Shown here one piece after another: positions 31,901 to 59,606 of a stretch of DNA of 64,000 bases; the stretch's first letter is position 1, and every line of letters starts with the position of its first letter. Location: assembly GCA_951406725.2 (NCBI GenBank), contig OX597830.1, positions 16,182,001 to 16,246,000 on the forward strand, read 5' to 3'. This DNA is from Octopus vulgaris. Lineage: Eukaryota. The translations under genes and the position numbers were made by a program. A model generated the notes under the pieces. The model was not told the DNA's origin, searched no databases, and saw only the letters and a list, made by a program, of their open reading frames with translations.

Positions 31901-33178
31901 TCAGGTCATCCCATAAGTTCTGTCCAATTTTACCTTTTCTAAAATTGAATGAAATTTAATGGTATTTTAGAATTTCTAATGGAATTTAAAATTTTTTTTA
32001 TGCATTTGTGTACATTTAAACTAATTAAATATTATTCTACAGAATAACAGAATTAAAATTTCTTTGATTAAAACCCTTTCTCACATGGAAGTATCCAAAG
32101 AGCATTTGAAGCACATAATGCTTTAAGAGTACTAAAAAGGAAACTCTGCAGCTGAAGCAACTCGAATCATACACTCATTTTATGGGAAAGAATGTTTGAA
32201 TGAAAGAACTTGCAGAAGATGGTTTGCAAAATTCAGAAGTGGAGATTTCAGCCTTGGAGATAAATACTGAACAGAACATCCAGTTGAGTTTGATGATAAG
32301 CTCCTTGAGACATTACTTGAAGAAAATCCTGCATTATCAGTTGAAGAATTGGCAATAAAGCTTAGTTCAAACCATACAACTGTTCATTGTCATCTTCAAC
32401 AACTTGGAAAGGTTCTTAAATTTGGAAAATGGGTGCCTCATGAATTGTCCGAAAGCAACCGCAAATCCCGAGTTGACATCTGCTCTTCTCTCTATTCTCG
32501 CAAATTCATTTCACCCATTTTGGATAGACTTGTGATTGGTGTCGAAAAATGGATCTTCTATCGAAATGTTAAATGTCATAAACAGTGGCTTGGTAAAAGG
32601 GAAAAAATCTCAGCCGCAACCAAGAAAGGAACTTCATGGGAAAAAGGTTCTTCTCTCTATTTGGTGGGATTGCAAAAGAGTAATTCATTTTGAATTGTTA
32701 CCACCTAATGCAACAATCAATGCTCAAGTTTACAGTCAGCAATTAGAGCATTTGAACCAAGCTTTGAAGGTAAAAAAGAACCTCTTTAGTGAATCAAAAA
32801 GGAGTAATGTTTCATCAGGACAATGTGCGACCCCACACTGCAAAGATCACATCATAGAGGATCGAAGAGCTTGGTTGGGAAAAAATTCCTCATCCACCTT
32901 ATTCTCCCAACCTTGCTCCTTCAGACTACCATTTGTTTTGGAGTTTACAGAATCATTTGGGGGACATAACTTTTGCAAGGAGATCGAAACTGACATTTCA
33001 GAGTCTTCGCTTTCAAACCAAAAGAGTTTTATCTTGATGGGATTAAAAAGCTTGTAAATAGATCGAAGGAAGTCATAGATAATCAGGGAAAGTACATTGA
33101 TGATTAAATTTCAATTAAATATAACATTTGATCACTTGTTTTCTTTATTCAAAATTCAGACTGAACTTATGGGATGAC

Positions 33179-34323: not shown

Positions 34324-35531
34324 TAGGGTGTGTAAGATATTTGAGGAAAGATTTATGTTTATAAAAAACAGATATACAATAATAGATAATAATTTTGTTT
34401 ATGAAAAATGCTATGAGGATAAAAATAAACCTTCTTTTCTATACTGCTTCAACAACTGCTTCTATATAAGATCTGAATCATCTCCATGCTCGAATCAAGT
34501 GGTCCTGGTTCATTTTGGACATTATTCTCCATATGGCAGCTTTCAAAGAATCTTTGGTGTTGTGGGTGTGTTCATTGACTTCTCTCTCAACAACACTCCA
34601 CATGTAATAATCCAATGGAATGAGATCTGGGAAATTAGGAGGCCAAATGTTAAGAGCTATGTGGTCATAAAAATTTTCAGACATCCATTCCTGTTACTAG
34701 AGTCATGTGTGATAAGGCAGAGTCTTATTGAAACACACATGGCCTTCCATTGCATATACCGTCTGTCCAGGGCTTATTTCCAGGACCTTGGTGTAGGCAG
34801 CAGAGTTATCTCTAAGGCCTTGTGGAAAGCAGTAAGGAGGCATCACATGTCCTTCATTGCTGACAACCCCTAAAACAATGACAGTTGCCGAAAATTTTGT
34901 ATGCATAACACTTGGAACTTCAGAAGGGTCTGCACATAGCCATCTGTCATTTCTTCTGTTAACTTTTTGATCTTGGTCGAAGTTTTTCTCGTTTGAGTAA
35001 AACCAAATCAAATCTTCTGCTGAATTTTTCAGTTTGTTTAAGAGCCTTTTAGATCTGGTGTAGTGATTTCCTTTTGCTTTTTCTGACAAATTGACCTTTC
35101 TTTGTCATATAAGACTTATATCTGATGACAACATTTCTGACTGTTCCTTCTTATATATGGAGATCTTATGCAATTGATCTCATGGACTTTCTAGGATTGT
35201 AATCAATGGTCTTTTGAACTTGCTGGATAAATCAAGTGTTCTGATGATTTCAGAACATTTAGAATGCTTTTTATGCTTTGATACTGGCGCCAAATTTCCA
35301 TCTTCAGTCTCTAACTCCTTACAAACTTTGTAGATGAAAGATCTGGCAACTTTTAAAAATTGAGATATTTCTAAATCACTAAGCTCAGCCTTTATAACCA
35401 CAATAACAACATGCCTCTTCATTTCTTGAGGGTCAGCCATTATCATTTTCTGAAACAAAGATTATACAGAGTTAGCAAAAAATGCAGTAACGACCCCGAA
35501 AGTTATGTCCTCAAATACATTACGCACCCTG
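34324..35531 (-). mobile_element. Decayed Tc1/mariner element of DD37D (maT)-like type
   Basis: TIRs (T/C)AGGGTG(T/C)GTAA(G/T)..ATTTGAGGA with TA flanks. Motifs FYSNEKNFDQDQKVNRRNDRW, VVSNEGHVMPP and WPPNFPDLIPLDYYMW. Confidence 0.88.
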
Positions 35532-35605
35532 TATATATATATATAAATATATGAAATTATATATATTTATACATATACATATATATTATATATACATATA
35601 TGTAC

Positions 35606-35636
<31 letters not shown>

Positions 35637-35651
35637 TGTACATATATATAC

Positions 35652-35765
<114 letters not shown>

Positions 35766-35810
35766 ACACATATATATATATGTACATATGTATATATGTA
35801 TATATATATA

Positions 35811-36304
35811 CAATGATAAATCTCAGAGCGAGTTATAAACAGTAGCGGTAACACATTGTGACACAGGAAGATACCTCCTCCAGCTGGCTATAGACACACT
35901 TTCTGTGCCCTATCAGTATTTGTGATATTCAAATGGCAAATATGCGTCACGATGTGTTACCGCTACTGTTTATAACTCGCTCTGAGATTTATCATTGTTT
36001 GATTTCACTTTTTCAATATCAGTGTCAATCGACACTGGAAAAAGTATATGTATTTGTGGGGGAAACTGAATTCTCGTCGACAACTGTGATTGTCACACGC
36101 CGATGATAGGTCAATACCTTGAAACTCGAGTCCGTGTGTATCATGAGTTGAAGATGGGAAGGATGACTTCCCTTCACAAATACTGATAGGGCACAGAAAG
36201 TGTGTCTATAGCCAGCTGGAGGAGGTATCTTCCTGGGGTTACAAACTACAGTAGCATCCACCCTTAGGGGTTAGCCATATTCAAATGGCAAATATGCGTC
36301 ACGA
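35811..36304 (+). mobile_element. (TA)n-flanked hammerhead element with terminal direct repeat and inverted 5' fragments
   Basis: TATTCAAATGGCAAATATGCGTCACGA occurs at ~35926 and ~36278. 35811-35862 inverts ~35947-35997, and ~35863-35925 inverts ~36174-36235. Confidence 0.85.
36094..36138 (+). ncRNA. Minimal type-I hammerhead ribozyme (U4C variant)
   Basis: CACACG-CCGATGA-TAGGT-CAAT-ACCTT-GAAA-CTCGAG-TC-CGTGTG with a perfect 6-bp stem I. Confidence 0.8.
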
Positions 36305-36328
36305 TATATATATACATATATATATATA

Positions 36329-36396
<68 letters not shown>

Positions 36397-36736
36397 TAGA
36401 TATATATATGACAGGCTTCTTTCACTTTTCATTCACCAAATCCTCTCACACGGCTTTGGTCATTCTGAGGTCATAGTAGGAGACACTTGCCCAAGGTTCC
36501 ATACAGTGGGACTGAACCTAGAACCATGTGGTTGGGAAATGATCTTCTTACCACACAGTCATGCCTGCACCTATGCATTTTTTAATTTGTCGCTCATGAA
36601 AATGAAAGATATGTATTAAACATGTTTTTATTATTTGCATCCTTCTGTATAGCTAACAAATGCATGCACACCTTGCACCCATGCAGGAAACATCTCTGGT
36701 TTGACTTATAGTCCTCTATGTTCTGTCCTTTTTCAG

Positions 36737-36822
36737 ATGTTACTGCGCAGATGAATTTGGTGCCCCTATCACAGATGTTGATATCAGTTTGGAAGAGGTC
36801 AAGAGAACAAACATGAACTGTA
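36737..36822 (+). CDS. Internal exon of the same thyroglobulin type-1 protein; (G)CYCADEFGAPITDVDISLEEVKRTNMNC
   Basis: Polypyrimidine tract plus TTTCAG acceptor and GTAAGT donor. Phase 2 in matches the exon at 1-52 (GG+A = Gly) and phase 1 out matches the next exon. It supplies the CYC-x-D-x-x-G motif and the last Cys of the domain. Confidence 0.9.
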
Positions 36823-36847
36823 GTAAGTATGCTACACATTTTGTATC

Positions 36848-37262
36848 TATTTCTTTACTACCCACAAGGGGCTAAACACAGAGGGGACAAACAAGGACAG
36901 ACAAACGGATTAAGTTGATTACATTGACCCCAGTGCATAACTGGTACTTATTTAATTGACCCCGAAAGGATGAAAGGTAAAGTTGACCTCGACGGAATTT
37001 GAACTCAGAATGTAGTGGCAGACGAAATACCTATTTCTTTACTACCCACAAGGGGCTACACACAGAGGGGACAAACAAGGACAGACAAATGGATCAAGTC
37101 GATTATATCGACCCCAGTGCGTAACTGGTACTTATTTAATCGATCCCGAAAGGATGAAAGGCAAAGTTGACCTCGGCGGAATTTGAACTCAGAACATAGC
37201 GGCAGACAAAATACCGCTAAGCATTTCGCCCGGCGTGCTAACGTTTCTGCCAGCTCGCCGTC
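36848..37262 (-). mobile_element. Third-family SINE with duplicated body, ~25 nt downstream of the exon donor (another at 44508-44915 minus)
   Basis: Reverse complement of 12761-13173. Confidence 0.88.
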
Positions 37263-39380: not shown

Positions 39381-39495
39381 GATCTAGATATATATATATA
39401 TGTTAGAAATATTGAATTTCTAAATGTCTCGGAGAGACATGAGTGGTGGTAGAGCGATATATTTGCGAAGAGGTTGCAGTCATCTCAGCGAGCGA

Positions 39496-39560
39496 GACTG
39501 GCTACCCTGGACTGACGATGAGCATTAGACTCAGAAACATATGTCTTCAGGTGCTCAGTC
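39496..39560 (+). ncRNA. Type-I hammerhead ribozyme inside a (TA)n-flanked ~313-nt insert (39402-39714)
   Basis: CCTGGA-CTGACGA-TGAG-CATTAGA-CTCA-GAAA-CATATG-TC-TTCAGG. Stem I is extended by GACTG/CAGTC. Confidence 0.88.
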
Positions 39561-39735
39561 CCAGCTGGCAGGGGTGATTGCCTCCCCTTTGCAAATATAA
39601 GGACACAGAAAATGTGTCAAAGCCGACAGGAGACGTCGATGTTTCCTAGGGCTAACTGGCGGTGATGTAATTCCCTTACGATACTGTCACATTGAGTTGA
39701 CAGTATACGACCACTATATATATATATATATATTT

Positions 39736-40183
39736 GTCCGTTGCCAGCCTCGCCTGGCCCCCGTGCTGGTGGCACGTAAAAGCACCATCCGTTCGTGTCC
39801 GTTGCCAGCCTCACCTGGTCCCCGTGCCGGTAGCACGTAAAAGCACCATCCGCTCATGTCCGTTGCCAGCCTCGCCTGGCCCCCGTGCCAGTGGTACGTA
39901 AAAGCACCATCCGTTCGTGTCCGTTGCCAGCCTCGCCTGGTCCCTGTGCCGGTGGCACGTAAAAGCACCATCCGTTCGTGGCCGTTTGCCAGCTCTGTCT
40001 GGCACCTGTGCGGGTGGCACGTAAAAAGCACCCACTACACTCATGGAGTGGTTGGCGTTAGGAAGGGCATCCAGCCGTAGAAACACTGCCAGATCTGACT
40101 GGGCTTGATAAGCCTTCCGGCTTCACAGACCCCAGTTGAACCGTCCAACCCATGCTAGCATGGAAAACGGATGCTGGATGATG
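39736..40183 (+). mobile_element. LINE (RTE-like) 3' UTR fragment with a 61-bp tandem array (~4.7 units) and (GAT)n tail
   Basis: Units start at 39736, 39797, 39858, 39919 and 39980. The shared tail CCAACCCATGCTAGCATGGAAAACGGA-(TGA)n also occurs near 26715, 31000, 41705, 45520-45815, 47090, 48090 and 57890. Confidence 0.8.
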
Positions 40184-40389: not shown

Positions 40390-40648
40390 AATATGTATAT
40401 ATATAAAGGGAAAGTTTACGAAAATAAGCAAAAGACGAAGGCAGGTGGAGTACAAACAAACAAATGTATTAGTATGGCGCTCAGGAATAGAAATAGAAAA
40501 AGTATTTTATGTTTTGAGCCTACGCTCTTCGACAGAAAGATACACAGAAAAAAACAAGGAGAGAAAAAAATGTGTGTAGGAGCTAACAATCTATCATGGC
40601 GTCCTGACTATATATATACATATATTTATATATATATATATAAATATA

Positions 40649-40997: not shown

Positions 40998-41284
40998 GAT
41001 AGATAGATATAGATATATATGTATATGTATATACATATATACACACACACATACATACAAATTTGTGTGTGTGTATGTATGTGTATGAGTGTACGAGGTG
41101 GTGTTGAAAAGTTCCTAGATTTAGGACATGTACTCAATATAGTGCATGTAGATTTTATACATCCCAGTAACTTAGTGGTTCAGCAAAAGAGACCAACAGA
41201 ATAAGTCCTGGGGTCGATTTGTATGATTAAAGACAGTGCTCCGGCATGGCCACAATCAAATGACTGAAACAAATAAATTTAAAT

Positions 41285-41690
41285 AGTGAAGCAAAGCTAA
41301 CTGTTTTTGTGCGTTCTTAAATGGCTTACAAACATCTTCTACATTCAAATTGTAAGCCATTCAAGAACACAAAAAAAACGTTAGTTTTACTCCAATATTT
41401 AAATTTAATTTGTGTCAAATTATTTTTCATTCCTTTAAAACCGTGACCTGTCTACTGACAAAACTTCCTGCTGCATCTCCAAGTGCTGAAGCATGAAGAT
41501 TTGTCAGTGGACAGGTCATGGTTTCAAAACAGCGAAAATATTTTGACACAAATTGAATTTAAATGTTGAAGTAAAACTAACAGTTTTTCTGTGCTCCGGA
41601 ATGGCTTACAAACATCTTCCATGCTACAATTGTTTTTGTTTCAATACGCCATCTTAGATTAAGTCACTTGCTATGCAAGTACATCTTCCT
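41285..41690. repeat. Fold-back element, older copy of the 24572-24800 family
   Basis: Arms at ~41351-41468 and 41496-41611, followed by the same tail CTTAGATTAAGTCACTTGCTATGCAAGTACATCT and (TA)n. Confidence 0.85.
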
Positions 41691-42966: not shown

Positions 42967-45605
42967 AAAAATGAAAAAGGAATGAACTGAAGGTGAAGAA
43001 AAATAGGTGGGTAAAGAGGGAAGCAGAAGAAGTCTTTGGAGCAAATATTAACAAGAAACCCCATAAAACTGTAATTTATCTTAATGATGTATCTATTATT
43101 ATAGGATGTAATCTAAGAAATGAAATAGTCATAAGATCATTGAGATAACACTAATTATTAATTACTTCTGTTAAGTCAGTTAGTTAGATGAGCAATATGT
43201 TTATTAATTAAAGAAATATATTTACTGAGAGAAACAGAGAGTTTATATTTGAATACAGTATATATCTAAAGAGATGTAACAGACAATAGGTTGGGTGGTA
43301 GATATGTGACAAATTTCTTTTAGTTCCCTTCTACTAAATCCATTTACGTGGCTTTGGCCAGTCTGGAGCTGTAGTAGTAGAACACTCACCCAAGGTGCTG
43401 TGGAGTGGGACTGAACTTGAGATCACATGGTTGGAAAGCAAGTTGCTTTAACCACCAGTTATGCCTGCATCTATATCATATTCTTGATTTAGTAAAAAAA
43501 AAAGTCATTAAAAGTCAGTTTACACATTGAAACCAATATTTCTAAGGTGACAAGCTGACAGAATCATTGGCATGTCAGGCAAAATGCTTAGCAGGATCTG
43601 AACTCAAAATGCTGAGTTCATTCTGTACATTCAGTTCATTCTGAGTACATTCAGTTCAATGTACATTCTGAGTTCAAATTCCACCAAGCTTGACTTTGCC
43701 TTTTATCCTTTTGGGGTAGATAAATTAAGTACTAGTTGAAAACTGGGATCAATGCAATCAACTTACACCCTCCCCAAAACTTGCTGGCCTTGTGCCAAAA
43801 TTTGAAATCAATACTTATTAATGGCAGCTGTGGAAATTCCACACTGCATAAACATTCTTGATTCTATTTTGTAGCTTAAATATAAATGACTTCATAACAT
43901 TGTTTCATTATGTTTGCAAGTAAATTTGGTAAGCAGAAACTGTGTGGAAACCTGTCATTTATCTGTGTGTGTGTGTGTCTTTGTCCCCCACCATTTGATA
44001 AGCAGTGTTGGTTTGTTTACATCCCCATAACTTAACCAAAAAAACTGATAGAATAAGTACCATACTTAAAAGAAAATAGGTAATGGGGTTGGTTTGCTTG
44101 GCTAAAGCCTCCAAAATAGTGCTCCAGCATGGCCATTGTCCAATGACTGAAACAATTGAAAGATAAGAGATGGAAGACATAAAATAAAAAACAAAATAAT
44201 TGAATATGACTTAACAAGATCAGTCGCCATTCACTGGACCTTCACATATAAAAATGTTCAATGTTCCTTGAGGGGATCCCTATATTGACCCTAGTGTGGC
44301 CAAATGGTTAAGAAGGTTATTTTGGAATCACAAGGTTGTGGGTTCAATTCCATTGCGTGCCAGGTGCCATGAGCAAGTGTCTTCTACCATAAACTCTGGT
44401 CAACCCAAGCCTCATAAGTGAAACAGTGTTCAGGGAAACTATATGGAAGCTTGTAACATGGTTCGTACTTGTAATTTAAGAGACCAGTCTAGTCATGTAA
44501 TCTTATTTATTTATTGCCCACAAGGGGCTAAACATAGAGGAGACAAACAAGGACAGACAAACGGATTAAGTCGATTACATCGACCCCAGTGCGCAACTGG
44601 TACTTAATTTATCAACCCCAAAAGGATGAAAGGCAAAGTCGACTTCGGCGGAATTTAAACTCAGAACGCAACGGCAGATGAAATACCTATTTCTTTATTA
44701 CCCACAAGGGGCTAAACACAGAGAGGACAAACAAGGACAGACAAAGGGATTAAGTCCATTACATCGACCCCAGTGCACAACTGGTACTTAATTTATCAAC
44801 CCCGAAAGGATGAAAGGCAAAATCGACCTCAGTGGAATTTGAACTCAGAACGCAACAGCAGACGAAATACCGCTAAGCATTTCACCCGGCGTGCTAACGT
44901 TTCTGCCAGCTCACCATCTAGTCACATTTTCTGTCAGATTAATTCAATTTGAAAATTAGTTTAAGGGTATAATTAACAATGTAGTACACAGATAATTTAC
45001 ATTCCTACTCAATGAGCAGATAATTAATTAAACAATTGAATACTAATTGTTGAAGAAACACATCAGAGATCCATTTGCTTTTTATATGATTAGTACTTGA
45101 TGGTACTTTATTTTATTGAACCGAAACGAATGAAAGGCAAAAAATCAACTGCAGCAAGGCTCTGAACCCAGAATGTCAAGATGAAACTAACAGCCACATG
45201 GAATTAAAATTACTCGCTCTACCATTTTCTGCTGCTCCTTGCCGTGCTGTTATTGATAAAATGATGAAAGTTCCCTTCTGGGTACCCTTTTGTTAATCAA
45301 TATCCAATATAGAAAATGTAGTGTCGTATTATTAACTTGTTCAGATTTTCAAAGAGGGATCGAACAATGTTTTTTATAGGACATTGAGACTCACTTGCTG
45401 ACTTAAACAAATGAATATATGTAAATATGCATGTTTGTGTATGTATATATGTATGTGAATAGGTATGTGTGTGTGTGCGTACATCTCTCTCTGTCTCTGT
45501 ATATATATATATATATATGTCCAACCCATGCCAGCATGGAAAATGGACGTTAAATGATGATGATGATGATGATACATACATACATACAAATACATATATA
45601 CATAC

Positions 45606-51942: not shown

Positions 51943-52072
51943 ACATACACTCATACACATACACATATCTATCTATACCTATGTGTGCATATATATATAT
52001 ATACAATTAATAATATTTTTATTACCAGTGGCCTAGTGTAAAAAAGTTAGTCAATAGACTATATATTATTCA

Positions 52073-52508
52073 TATAAAATACAGTGTACATCAAAACACA
52101 TTAAGAGGCTTCCATCATAGGAATCCTTTATGCTAGAAAGAACAGTTAAAGTCCAAACCCCTAATTAGGGATAAATTCTCAAAGGGAATGATAAATAGAA
52201 ACATTTACCATCTAATTCCTGGACCATGGTTTCTGACTTATTTTAGTCGTTATCAACAGGGACGCCATAGATAGATTAATCTATGGCATCCCTGTTCATA
52301 ATGACTTTGCCTGGTGGATAATAATTTTTATTTACTAAAATGAGTCAGAAACCATGGTCCAGGAATTAGATGGTAAATGCTTTTATCTTTCATTCCCTTC
52401 GAGAATTTATCCCTAATTAGTGGTTTGGACTTTAACTGTTCTTTCTAGCGTAAAGGATTCCTATGATGGAAACCTCTTAATGTGTTTTAATGTACACTGT
52501 ATTTTATA
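52073..52508. repeat. Large fold-back element (~200-bp arms) with a hammerhead in each arm
   Basis: Minus 52217-52261 reads CCCTG-TTGATAA-CGACT-AAAATA-AGTCA-GAAA-CCATGG-TC-CAGGA. The plus copy at 52290-52364 has a longer stem II loop. Confidence 0.88.
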
Positions 52509-58262: not shown

Positions 58263-58295
<33 letters not shown>

Positions 58296-58343
58296 TGGGT
58301 ATTTATCGCCCGTGATGGTCTAATAAATTGTATCAAAAACTAA

Positions 58344-58417
58344 TGCTGCTGATGATTTATAGATAAATATGTGAGTATAATTGCATATTATGTTGATAAA
58401 GAAACAATTGTTCAGCA
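58344..58417 (+). ncRNA. Type-I hammerhead ribozyme inside a (TA)n-flanked insert (~58294-58670)
   Basis: TGCTG-CTGATGA-TTTAT...ATAAA-GAAA-CAATTG-TT-CAGCA, with perfect stem I and canonical core. Confidence 0.85.
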
Positions 58418-59606
58418 CTAATCTATCTTTTCGTTGTATTTCGCTTTCCATACGTTGGAGGTAATGTTATTTCTTTTGTGGAAACAATTTCGGTGGCTAT
58501 ACCAGAATAAGGAGCTATTTCTAGCACTAGAGTTAACCACTTAACGGTAACTCTCTTATATTTACGTATAAATTTGTATTGTCTCCCTGGTTTTTTATGT
58601 GCTAGGCCACTTGGTGTTAAACTGATGGTATTATTAAATTAATATCTAATTTTTCACCCTCATTTATGAATGTATATATATATATATATATATTAAGGCA
58701 ATCTTTATATCCAACTTAATGTGGATGTTCTTTAAGAACACTAAATACTGCATTATTTACCTAGAGAGGACCTCTCATAAGGATGTATGTTCTGGTGCCT
58801 TTAGCAGATGATTCTCATCTGCCAACGATATATATATATATGTGTGTGTGTGTTTATGCACCATATATGACTTAATGCCATGGCAAAAAGAGGTCAATGG
58901 AATACATACTATACTCTAGAAAAATATTTTATGTGGTCGTTTTGTTCAACTAAACACTTCAAGGGGATGCCCCTGCATCATGTATACTAATTTTCAAGTT
59001 ATTATCATTATAAAAAAAATTTCATTACCTGATCTGAATGCTTTTATCTAAACTATTTTTTGTCTCATCACAGACGAAACATATATTTTATTTCCTTGTC
59101 AAAGACTCTGTTACTTGATTGAGATATATTCGTGTGTGAACTAATTTTTTATTCCTATCATTTAAAAAAATTTTATGACCTGACCTGAATGTTTTTATAT
59201 AAACTATTTTTGACTCATCACAGAAAATACATAAAATTTCAAAATTTTTTCTTATCATTGTCAAAGACTCGATCACTTGATTTGAATACATTTTTGTCAA
59301 CTACTTTTTTTTTGACACCACAGAGAATACACAAAACTTACACTCTACTTTTGAAAATCTTTTTAATTAAGTGAAACCGGTTAAGTTAATGAATACTTTT
59401 AAAAGACTCCTGCATTTTCAGATTCTTTTCCTTATATCTTTACTCATGCGGTAACACTGCATATATATATATATATATGTATGTAAGTATGTATGTATGT
59501 ATGTATGTATGTATGTATGTATATATGTATATATATATGCATATATATAGATAGATAGATAGATGGATATAGATATATATACATATATATTTATACATAT
59601 ATATAC

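Follow-up and report, generated by a model that had tools for sequence, protein, structure and literature searches.

The element at 35810-36305 of the window (the whole 64,000-nt stretch of Octopus vulgaris DNA that was analysed) very probably works like an insertion of a Penelope-like element (PLE). Its most likely source, favoured by a modest degree, is a short repeated non-coding hammerhead unit of about 352 nt that was inserted in trans by a Penelope-like RT/GIY-YIG protein; the 352-nt unit is read from a single locus. By its sequence the element would be filed as PLE-mobilised and retrozyme-like, with the tandem arrangement of an active retrozyme absent at the locus. The features of the locus, together with a related segment further downstream, are as follows.

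35532-35810, no strand: left (TA)n array; target site
35810-35856, minus strand: inverted piece A, which forms the 3' end of the inverted copy, PLE-type tail (47 nt exact against 35952-35998)
35857-35863, minus strand: 7-nt linker, best read as the direct-repeat end 35945-35951 with two CpG-type transitions
35864-35925, minus strand: inverted piece B, which makes up the 5' part of the inverted copy (62 nt exact against 36174-36235)
35925-35953, plus strand: first (5') copy of the 29-nt direct repeat, belonging to a partial upstream unit
35953-36304, plus strand: 352-nt unit, 42% GC, strongly self-paired
36007-36045, plus strand: hairpin upstream of the hammerhead rod (fold)
36050-36183, plus strand: long rod extending stem I, with the hammerhead at its tip (fold; kept in the paralog, with compensatory changes)
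36094-36138, plus strand: type I hammerhead (motif descriptor)
36189-36207, plus strand: small hairpin with a GAAA-containing loop (fold; among the best conserved stretches against the paralog at 39401-39716)
36277-36305, plus strand: second (3') copy of the direct repeat, at which the forward copy has its 3' end; putative first RT start site
36304-36409, no strand: right (TA)n array
39401-39716, plus strand: distant paralog, 316 nt between (TA)n arrays, without a terminal repeat (alignment, hammerhead, fold)

Anatomy of the insertion

The element was flanked on both sides by (TA)n arrays and carried an exact direct repeat of 29 nt (35925-35953 and 36277-36305; spacing 352; blast E 2e-9 against the window), which corresponds to the terminal repeat of about 27 nt described in the earlier note once the last AT, common to the (TA)n array, is left off. 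The two upstream reverse-complement pieces that had been assigned there to different internal positions proved to be exact as well: piece A (47 nt, 35810-35856) is the reverse complement of 35952-35998 and piece B (62 nt, 35864-35925) that of 36174-36235, and the two are separated by the 7-nt linker. Outside the linker, no difference was found over the 138 nt of the duplicated parts, i.e. the direct repeat and the inverted pieces (95% upper bound 2.1%), so the insertion is young.

On the minus strand the order of the inverted head was B, linker, A and then (TA)n. When the linker was compared with the final 7 nt of the direct repeat ahead of A, 5 of the 7 positions were identical and both mismatches were CpG-type transitions; the chance of this colinear reading was about 0.001, against about 0.02 for the exact 7-nt match of the linker to 36091-36097 instead. 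The linker is linked to piece B at the skip by a 2-nt microhomology. In tandem numbering the head covers 36174-36235 and, after a skip of 61 nt, 36297-36350; it crosses the unit junction and overshoots the forward copy's 3' end by about 46 nt, and the inverted and forward copies, overlapping by 1 nt, join head to head at 35925. Judged by this order, the head is better read as a single inverted, 5'-truncated copy with a 61-nt internal skip than as a patchwork. A spliced intron was considered for the skip and rejected, as it has no GT-AG ends.

The locus amounts to 1.08 units and contains one hammerhead only, so no monomer could be released from the locus itself by double self-cleavage. Six-frame translation of the element gave short frames only, with no telomerase-like RT or GIY-YIG endonuclease frame, and the element is not an autonomous PLE. 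An open frame of 57 aa crosses the unit junction; it had 0 matches in a word-indexed protein set (restricted to 31-100 aa), 0 among 1.84 billion protein representatives and 0 in Pfam. A conserved reading frame after the hammerhead was also considered and rejected, as the frames close early and differ between the unit and the paralog. Beyond the right (TA)n array, an exon-like stretch at 36737-36822 (plus strand) with AG/GT ends and a short cysteine-containing frame was observed, with 0 matches in Pfam or PDB.

Hammerhead motif and predicted fold

The mid-unit hammerhead reported at 36094-36138 was recovered as a type I motif, and a search with the hammerhead descriptor in 5000 dinucleotide shuffles of the unit gave 0 matches. 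It consists of a 6-bp stem I (36094-36099/36133-36138), the core CCGAUGA (36100-36106) with GAAA at 36121-36124, a 4-bp stem II with U.U at its base, and a stem III region formed by an 8-nt palindrome (36124-36131, dimer type); the GUC ends at 36132, after which the cut is predicted from the sequence. Position 4 of the core is C (U4C). This change considerably reduces activity in vitro, yet a viroid tolerates it (PMC3088659), and U.U at the base of stem II is found in an active axolotl ribozyme (PMC7229834). Given the young insertion, both variants probably came with the template. Rfam gave 0 matches in the window at the gathering score, and the 4 weak matches obtained up to E 10 included no hammerhead family. 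Type I hammerheads are described as lying in pLTRs, with dimer-dependent cleavage, and copying of more than one unit from circles has already been proposed (PMC4209133).

The unit was predicted to fold more stably than its shuffles (z -5.0 linear and -4.2 circular; 0/100 shuffles equally stable). The z value was -5.35 without piece A and -5.0 with it, so that inclusion of A was not favoured. A helix predicted between the tail and 36236-36255 was not significant (P 0.09), and a hairpin across 35998/35999 had zero probability in the ensemble.

A distant paralog in the window

The segment at 39401-39716 contains an intact hammerhead core (39512-39545), and the distance from the core to the 3' end is 204 nt in both the paralog and the unit. 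Its local alignment score with the unit was 89.5, against 38.5 +/- 6.7 and a maximum of 72.5 for shuffles (n=500), and its fold was similar to that of the unit (z -8.4 linear and -7.3 circular; 100 shuffles). In a joint fold of the unit and the paralog, 13 of the 44 consensus pairs were changed on both sides, a count that comes from two sequences and a fold chosen to pair. The similarity, the shared fold and the two-sided pair changes together point to an old family under structural constraint. The 3' end of the paralog aligns with the direct repeat, which argues that the repeat belongs to the element and not to host sequence. At the other end, the paralog begins 111 nt before its core, as compared with 101 nt from 35999 in the unit, and its first 24 nt had no significant alignment to piece A (P 0.37-0.79); an earlier 46-nt test had given P 0.009, uncorrected and one of four. 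GC content of the unit and the paralog is 42-47%.

No close second copy was detected in the 64-kb window by blastn or by a two-sequence profile, with the paralog as the only relative, and no tandem array of the unit was present in the window. A scan for exact 26-nt matches among bacterial and archaeal genomes found 0, which carries little weight for an animal repeat. Directly after the (TA)n flank of the paralog, 4.9 copies of a GC-rich 61-nt unit were observed (39735-40032).

Signature of PLE insertion and window controls

PLEs are characterised by partial tandems, an adjoining inverted 5'-truncated copy, a 30-40-bp tail often present at one end only, and microsatellite targets (PMC8557442), and the insertions of rotifer PLEs have the identical shape (PMC3846280). 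All of these have counterparts at the octopus locus, namely an inverted 5'-truncated head (35810-35925), a one-ended tail of about 46 nt, a 29-nt partial tandem and a (TA)n target, together with the type I hammerhead. The architecture is that of a textbook PLE and is no surprise to a specialist.

As controls, the window provided 52 segments that lie between (TA)n arrays and measure 100-1600 nt. Three other segments among the 52 had an inverted head and a one-ended tail, 24572-24801 (58 nt), 26366-26553 (68 nt) and 52003-52504 (74 nt), and a unit-spaced direct repeat was found in none of the three. In the family formed by 24572-24801 and 41265-41689, the short end lies at about the same motif in both copies; kinship of the unit with this family was unsupported (P 0.25-0.82).

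A relaxed hammerhead scan of the window, with a descriptor tuned after three of the window's motifs had been viewed, gave 8 matches, 6 of them under stricter rules, against a mean of 0.1 (maximum 1) in 40 block shuffles. The six motifs belong to type I and have a palindromic stem III (9571+, 15735-, 36100+, 39512+, 52256- and 58349+), and in every case a TA run follows downstream within about 260 nt.

Proposed route of insertion and nature of the template

The purified anole PLE protein PAc acts on both strands of AT-rich DNA in vitro, cutting and extending them, begins RT at two internal sites, the interval between which equals the tail, and uses uncleaved RNA, with no need for hammerhead cleavage (PMC11167929). 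By analogy, an endonuclease would cut both strands within the (TA)n tract at the octopus locus, both 3' ends would prime cDNA, and RT would begin at two internal start sites separated by about 46 nt. Of the two cDNAs, the right-hand one would start at 36304, pass the uncut hammerhead over a run of 352 nt and continue for 29 nt within the next unit; the left-hand one would start at the second site (the 35998 equivalent), skip 61 nt at the 2-nt microhomology and stop at 36174; and the two cDNAs would then be joined head to head at 35925.

Since both cDNAs would read across the unit junction, the template would in effect have been longer than one unit. An uncleaved tandem transcript and a circle are given roughly even odds as this template, because uncleaved RNA is favoured by the U4C core and the PAc result, and a circle by retrozyme biology. 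The narrower proposal that both cDNAs came from a retrozyme-type RNA circle caught mid-insertion by PLE machinery, primed from opposite strands at two fixed start sites, with the circle's junction read through by both and the ribozyme site by one, is conceivable and somewhat doubtful. If true, it would be direct genomic evidence for the proposed link of animal hammerhead circles to the PLE RT, and a cephalopod genome would perhaps be very dense in hammerhead elements: 6 per 64 kb would correspond to about 260,000 if the window were typical of 2.8 Gb, as extrapolated from one window.

The earlier note had explained the terminal redundancy by RT around a circular or tandem RNA. Passage of the forward copy through the uncut GUC and back into the unit agrees with that explanation, as does the crossing of the junction by the head. 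Re-initiation at the second RT start site in a single insertion would give the identical sequence without a 352-nt unit, and to that extent the explanation holds only in part.

Competing explanations

The best surviving competitor builds on such a re-initiation and is a one-off chimera from a long linear PLE, in which 306 nt of pLTR (36304 to 35999) would be copied, RT would restart at the second site on another RNA, and the tail and 29 nt would follow, so that 352 = 306 + 46 and no unit is required. It is considered unlikely. In it the refuting case of the earlier note, copies colinear with a long linear PLE, returns in altered form. The inverted copy stops exactly at 35998, which marks an RT start site and hence a plausible jump target, and partial tandems and 5' truncation are normal in PLEs (PMC8557442). 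The start of the paralog, 111 nt before its core, is near the 101 nt from 35999; this similar length fits a fixed unit equally well. An additional direct partial copy near the short end of its family is present in 41265-41689, but that case is about 80% diverged and perhaps represents two insertions. The hammerhead of the PLE-like fragment at 15452-16759 lies about 400 nt past the stop codon, so absent coding at the present locus proves nothing; against the chimera, the unit and the paralog have 42-47% GC and a compact hammerhead, and the 3' region of that fragment has 28% GC and a long stem II. Three RT runs and a skip would moreover be needed in one event. Such a chimera event could itself be a birth route of mini-units.

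Fold-back or template switching of the first-strand cDNA during second-strand synthesis, with two patches of the element copied from itself, is judged quite improbable as the origin of the head. Both pieces occur in the forward copy, so that a DNA template would have been at hand, the 7 nt of the linker are identical to 36091-36097 (P about 0.02), and self-priming has been proposed for head-to-head junctions of PLEs (PMC3846280). The pieces nevertheless stand in unit order across the junction, the short end of the 24572/41265 family recurs near one motif, which is expected of a fixed start site but not of random termination, and PAc extends both strands from RNA in vitro (PMC11167929). The patchwork head by second-strand template switching, as suggested in the earlier note, is therefore weakened: the pieces are colinear with one skip, the shape is standard for PLEs, and three other insertions in the window are alike.

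A TSD, local duplication or assembly artefact combined with a chance hammerhead is barely credible: the complete identity over 138 nt and the position between long microsatellites would allow it, but the repeat, 114 nt inside the left flank, represents the element's own 3' end and aligns with that of the paralog, the hairpin is conserved, none of the 5000 shuffles contained the hammerhead, the linker carries two CpG-type transitions, and the window has the three other insertions of like shape.

A possible driver

In favour of the trans-inserted unit, the window also contains a 5'-truncated PLE-like fragment at 15452-16860 (minus strand), with a 203-aa frame (16151-16759) and a (TA)n end; its hammerhead has a long stem II and lies about 400 nt past the stop codon, in a 3' region of 28% GC. 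The nearest Atlas clusters of the 203-aa frame carry GIY-YIG and HTH_animal at 0.92-0.94, with GIY-YIG on under a third of the members. Only two matches were obtained among 46 candidates, both Octopus sinensis proteins, one of which has the YIG-like motif in common with the frame. The fragment gave 0 Pfam families and 0 matches among 461 longer candidates, and the frame is called GIY-YIG-like on the Atlas features and the YIG-like motif. Comparison of the unit with the fragment (15452-16759) gave no DNA similarity (3' region P 0.45-0.68), and kinship of the unit with the fragment was unsupported.

In O. vulgaris, 31 recently active PLE families have been reported (PMC13282606). Hydra-clade PLEs have (TA)n targeting and canonical hammerheads and occur in molluscs (PMC8557442); they are a candidate driver class. 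Neptune-type elements favour microsatellites too (PMC8557442).

Comparison with known systems

Insertions of EN+ PLEs (PMC8557442, PMC11167929 and PMC3846280) resemble the octopus element in the inverted 5'-truncated head, the one-ended extension, the partial tandem, the type I hammerhead upstream of the 3' end, the AT-rich or (TA)n target and a TSD that is not visible. They differ in that the octopus element has no RT or endonuclease frame, its unit would be 352 nt as compared with about 3 kb, its tail is about 46 nt as compared with the published 30-40, and its head has a 61-nt internal skip.

Non-LTR retrozymes (PMC7229834; bioRxiv 10.64898/2026.07.22.740005) are alike in unit size, GC under 50% and strong self-pairing, and in the type I hammerhead, in which stem I has 6 bp, stem II has 4 bp and stem III is a short palindrome. 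Retrozymes are about 150-450 nt, non-coding, under 50% GC and self-paired, and the values of the octopus element, if the unit is real, are 352 nt, 42% GC and z -4.2 to -5.0. Mussel retrozyme repeats are 350-390 bp (PMC7229834), retrozyme monomers are common, and mobilisation by PLEs has been proposed (PMC7229834; bioRxiv 10.64898/2026.07.22.740005). In contrast to these retrozymes, the octopus locus has no tandem array of two hammerheads, its core has U4C and it is known from DNA alone; it also carries the full PLE insertion signature, which is not described for retrozymes in the accessible parts of PMC7229834 and the preprint.

PLEs of Chlamys such as MRC1 (PMC8557442) are likewise non-coding and PLE-mobilised, with pLTRs and head-to-tail copies, whereas they are green algal, mostly without canonical hammerheads, and have a 3' end that resembles an autonomous partner; none was found for the octopus element in the window. 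A literature search over listings and the beginnings of abstracts, with few subscription papers, returned no paper that dealt with hammerhead elements of octopus or described tail-and-head signatures for retrozymes, and supplements or repeat libraries may hold the family.

How animal hammerhead repeats spread is still to be elucidated (bioRxiv 10.64898/2026.07.22.740005), with PLEs named as candidates (PMC7229834). An insertion of slightly more than one unit, with a tail and an inverted head, ties a retrozyme-like unit to the PLE insertion signature. RT start sites are predicted from the locus at two positions, and the 35998/35999 junction is diagnostic. What makes the locus valuable is that this junction can be tested, along with how abundant such elements seem to be in the genome.

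Other repeats in the window

The segment at 26366-26553 is a palindromic insertion between TA runs with a 68-nt extension at one end. One family with an inverted head and a 58-nt tail is represented twice, by 24572-24801 and 41265-41689, and no hammerhead was found in it; 41265-41689 has an additional direct partial copy on the left, near the short end of the family. Three dispersed dimers of a 184-nt unit (12807-13176, 36847-37215 and 44504-44871) have about 91% identity between units, and no hammerhead was found in them in the scans. Broken frames at 32271-33057 (plus strand), 34703-35104 (minus strand) and 5585-5920 (plus strand) look like a mariner transposase, another transposase and a LINE endonuclease, respectively. 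A short element with a minimal hammerhead lies at 9484-9702, and 40459-40542 (minus strand) is a partial paralog of it, 73% identical. The segment at 52003-52504 (minus strand) has an inverted head, 161/171 identical, a forward copy, a 74-nt tail and a hammerhead with a U3-A8 core; a short motif near its 3' end, noted by eye, is in common with 58295-58672.
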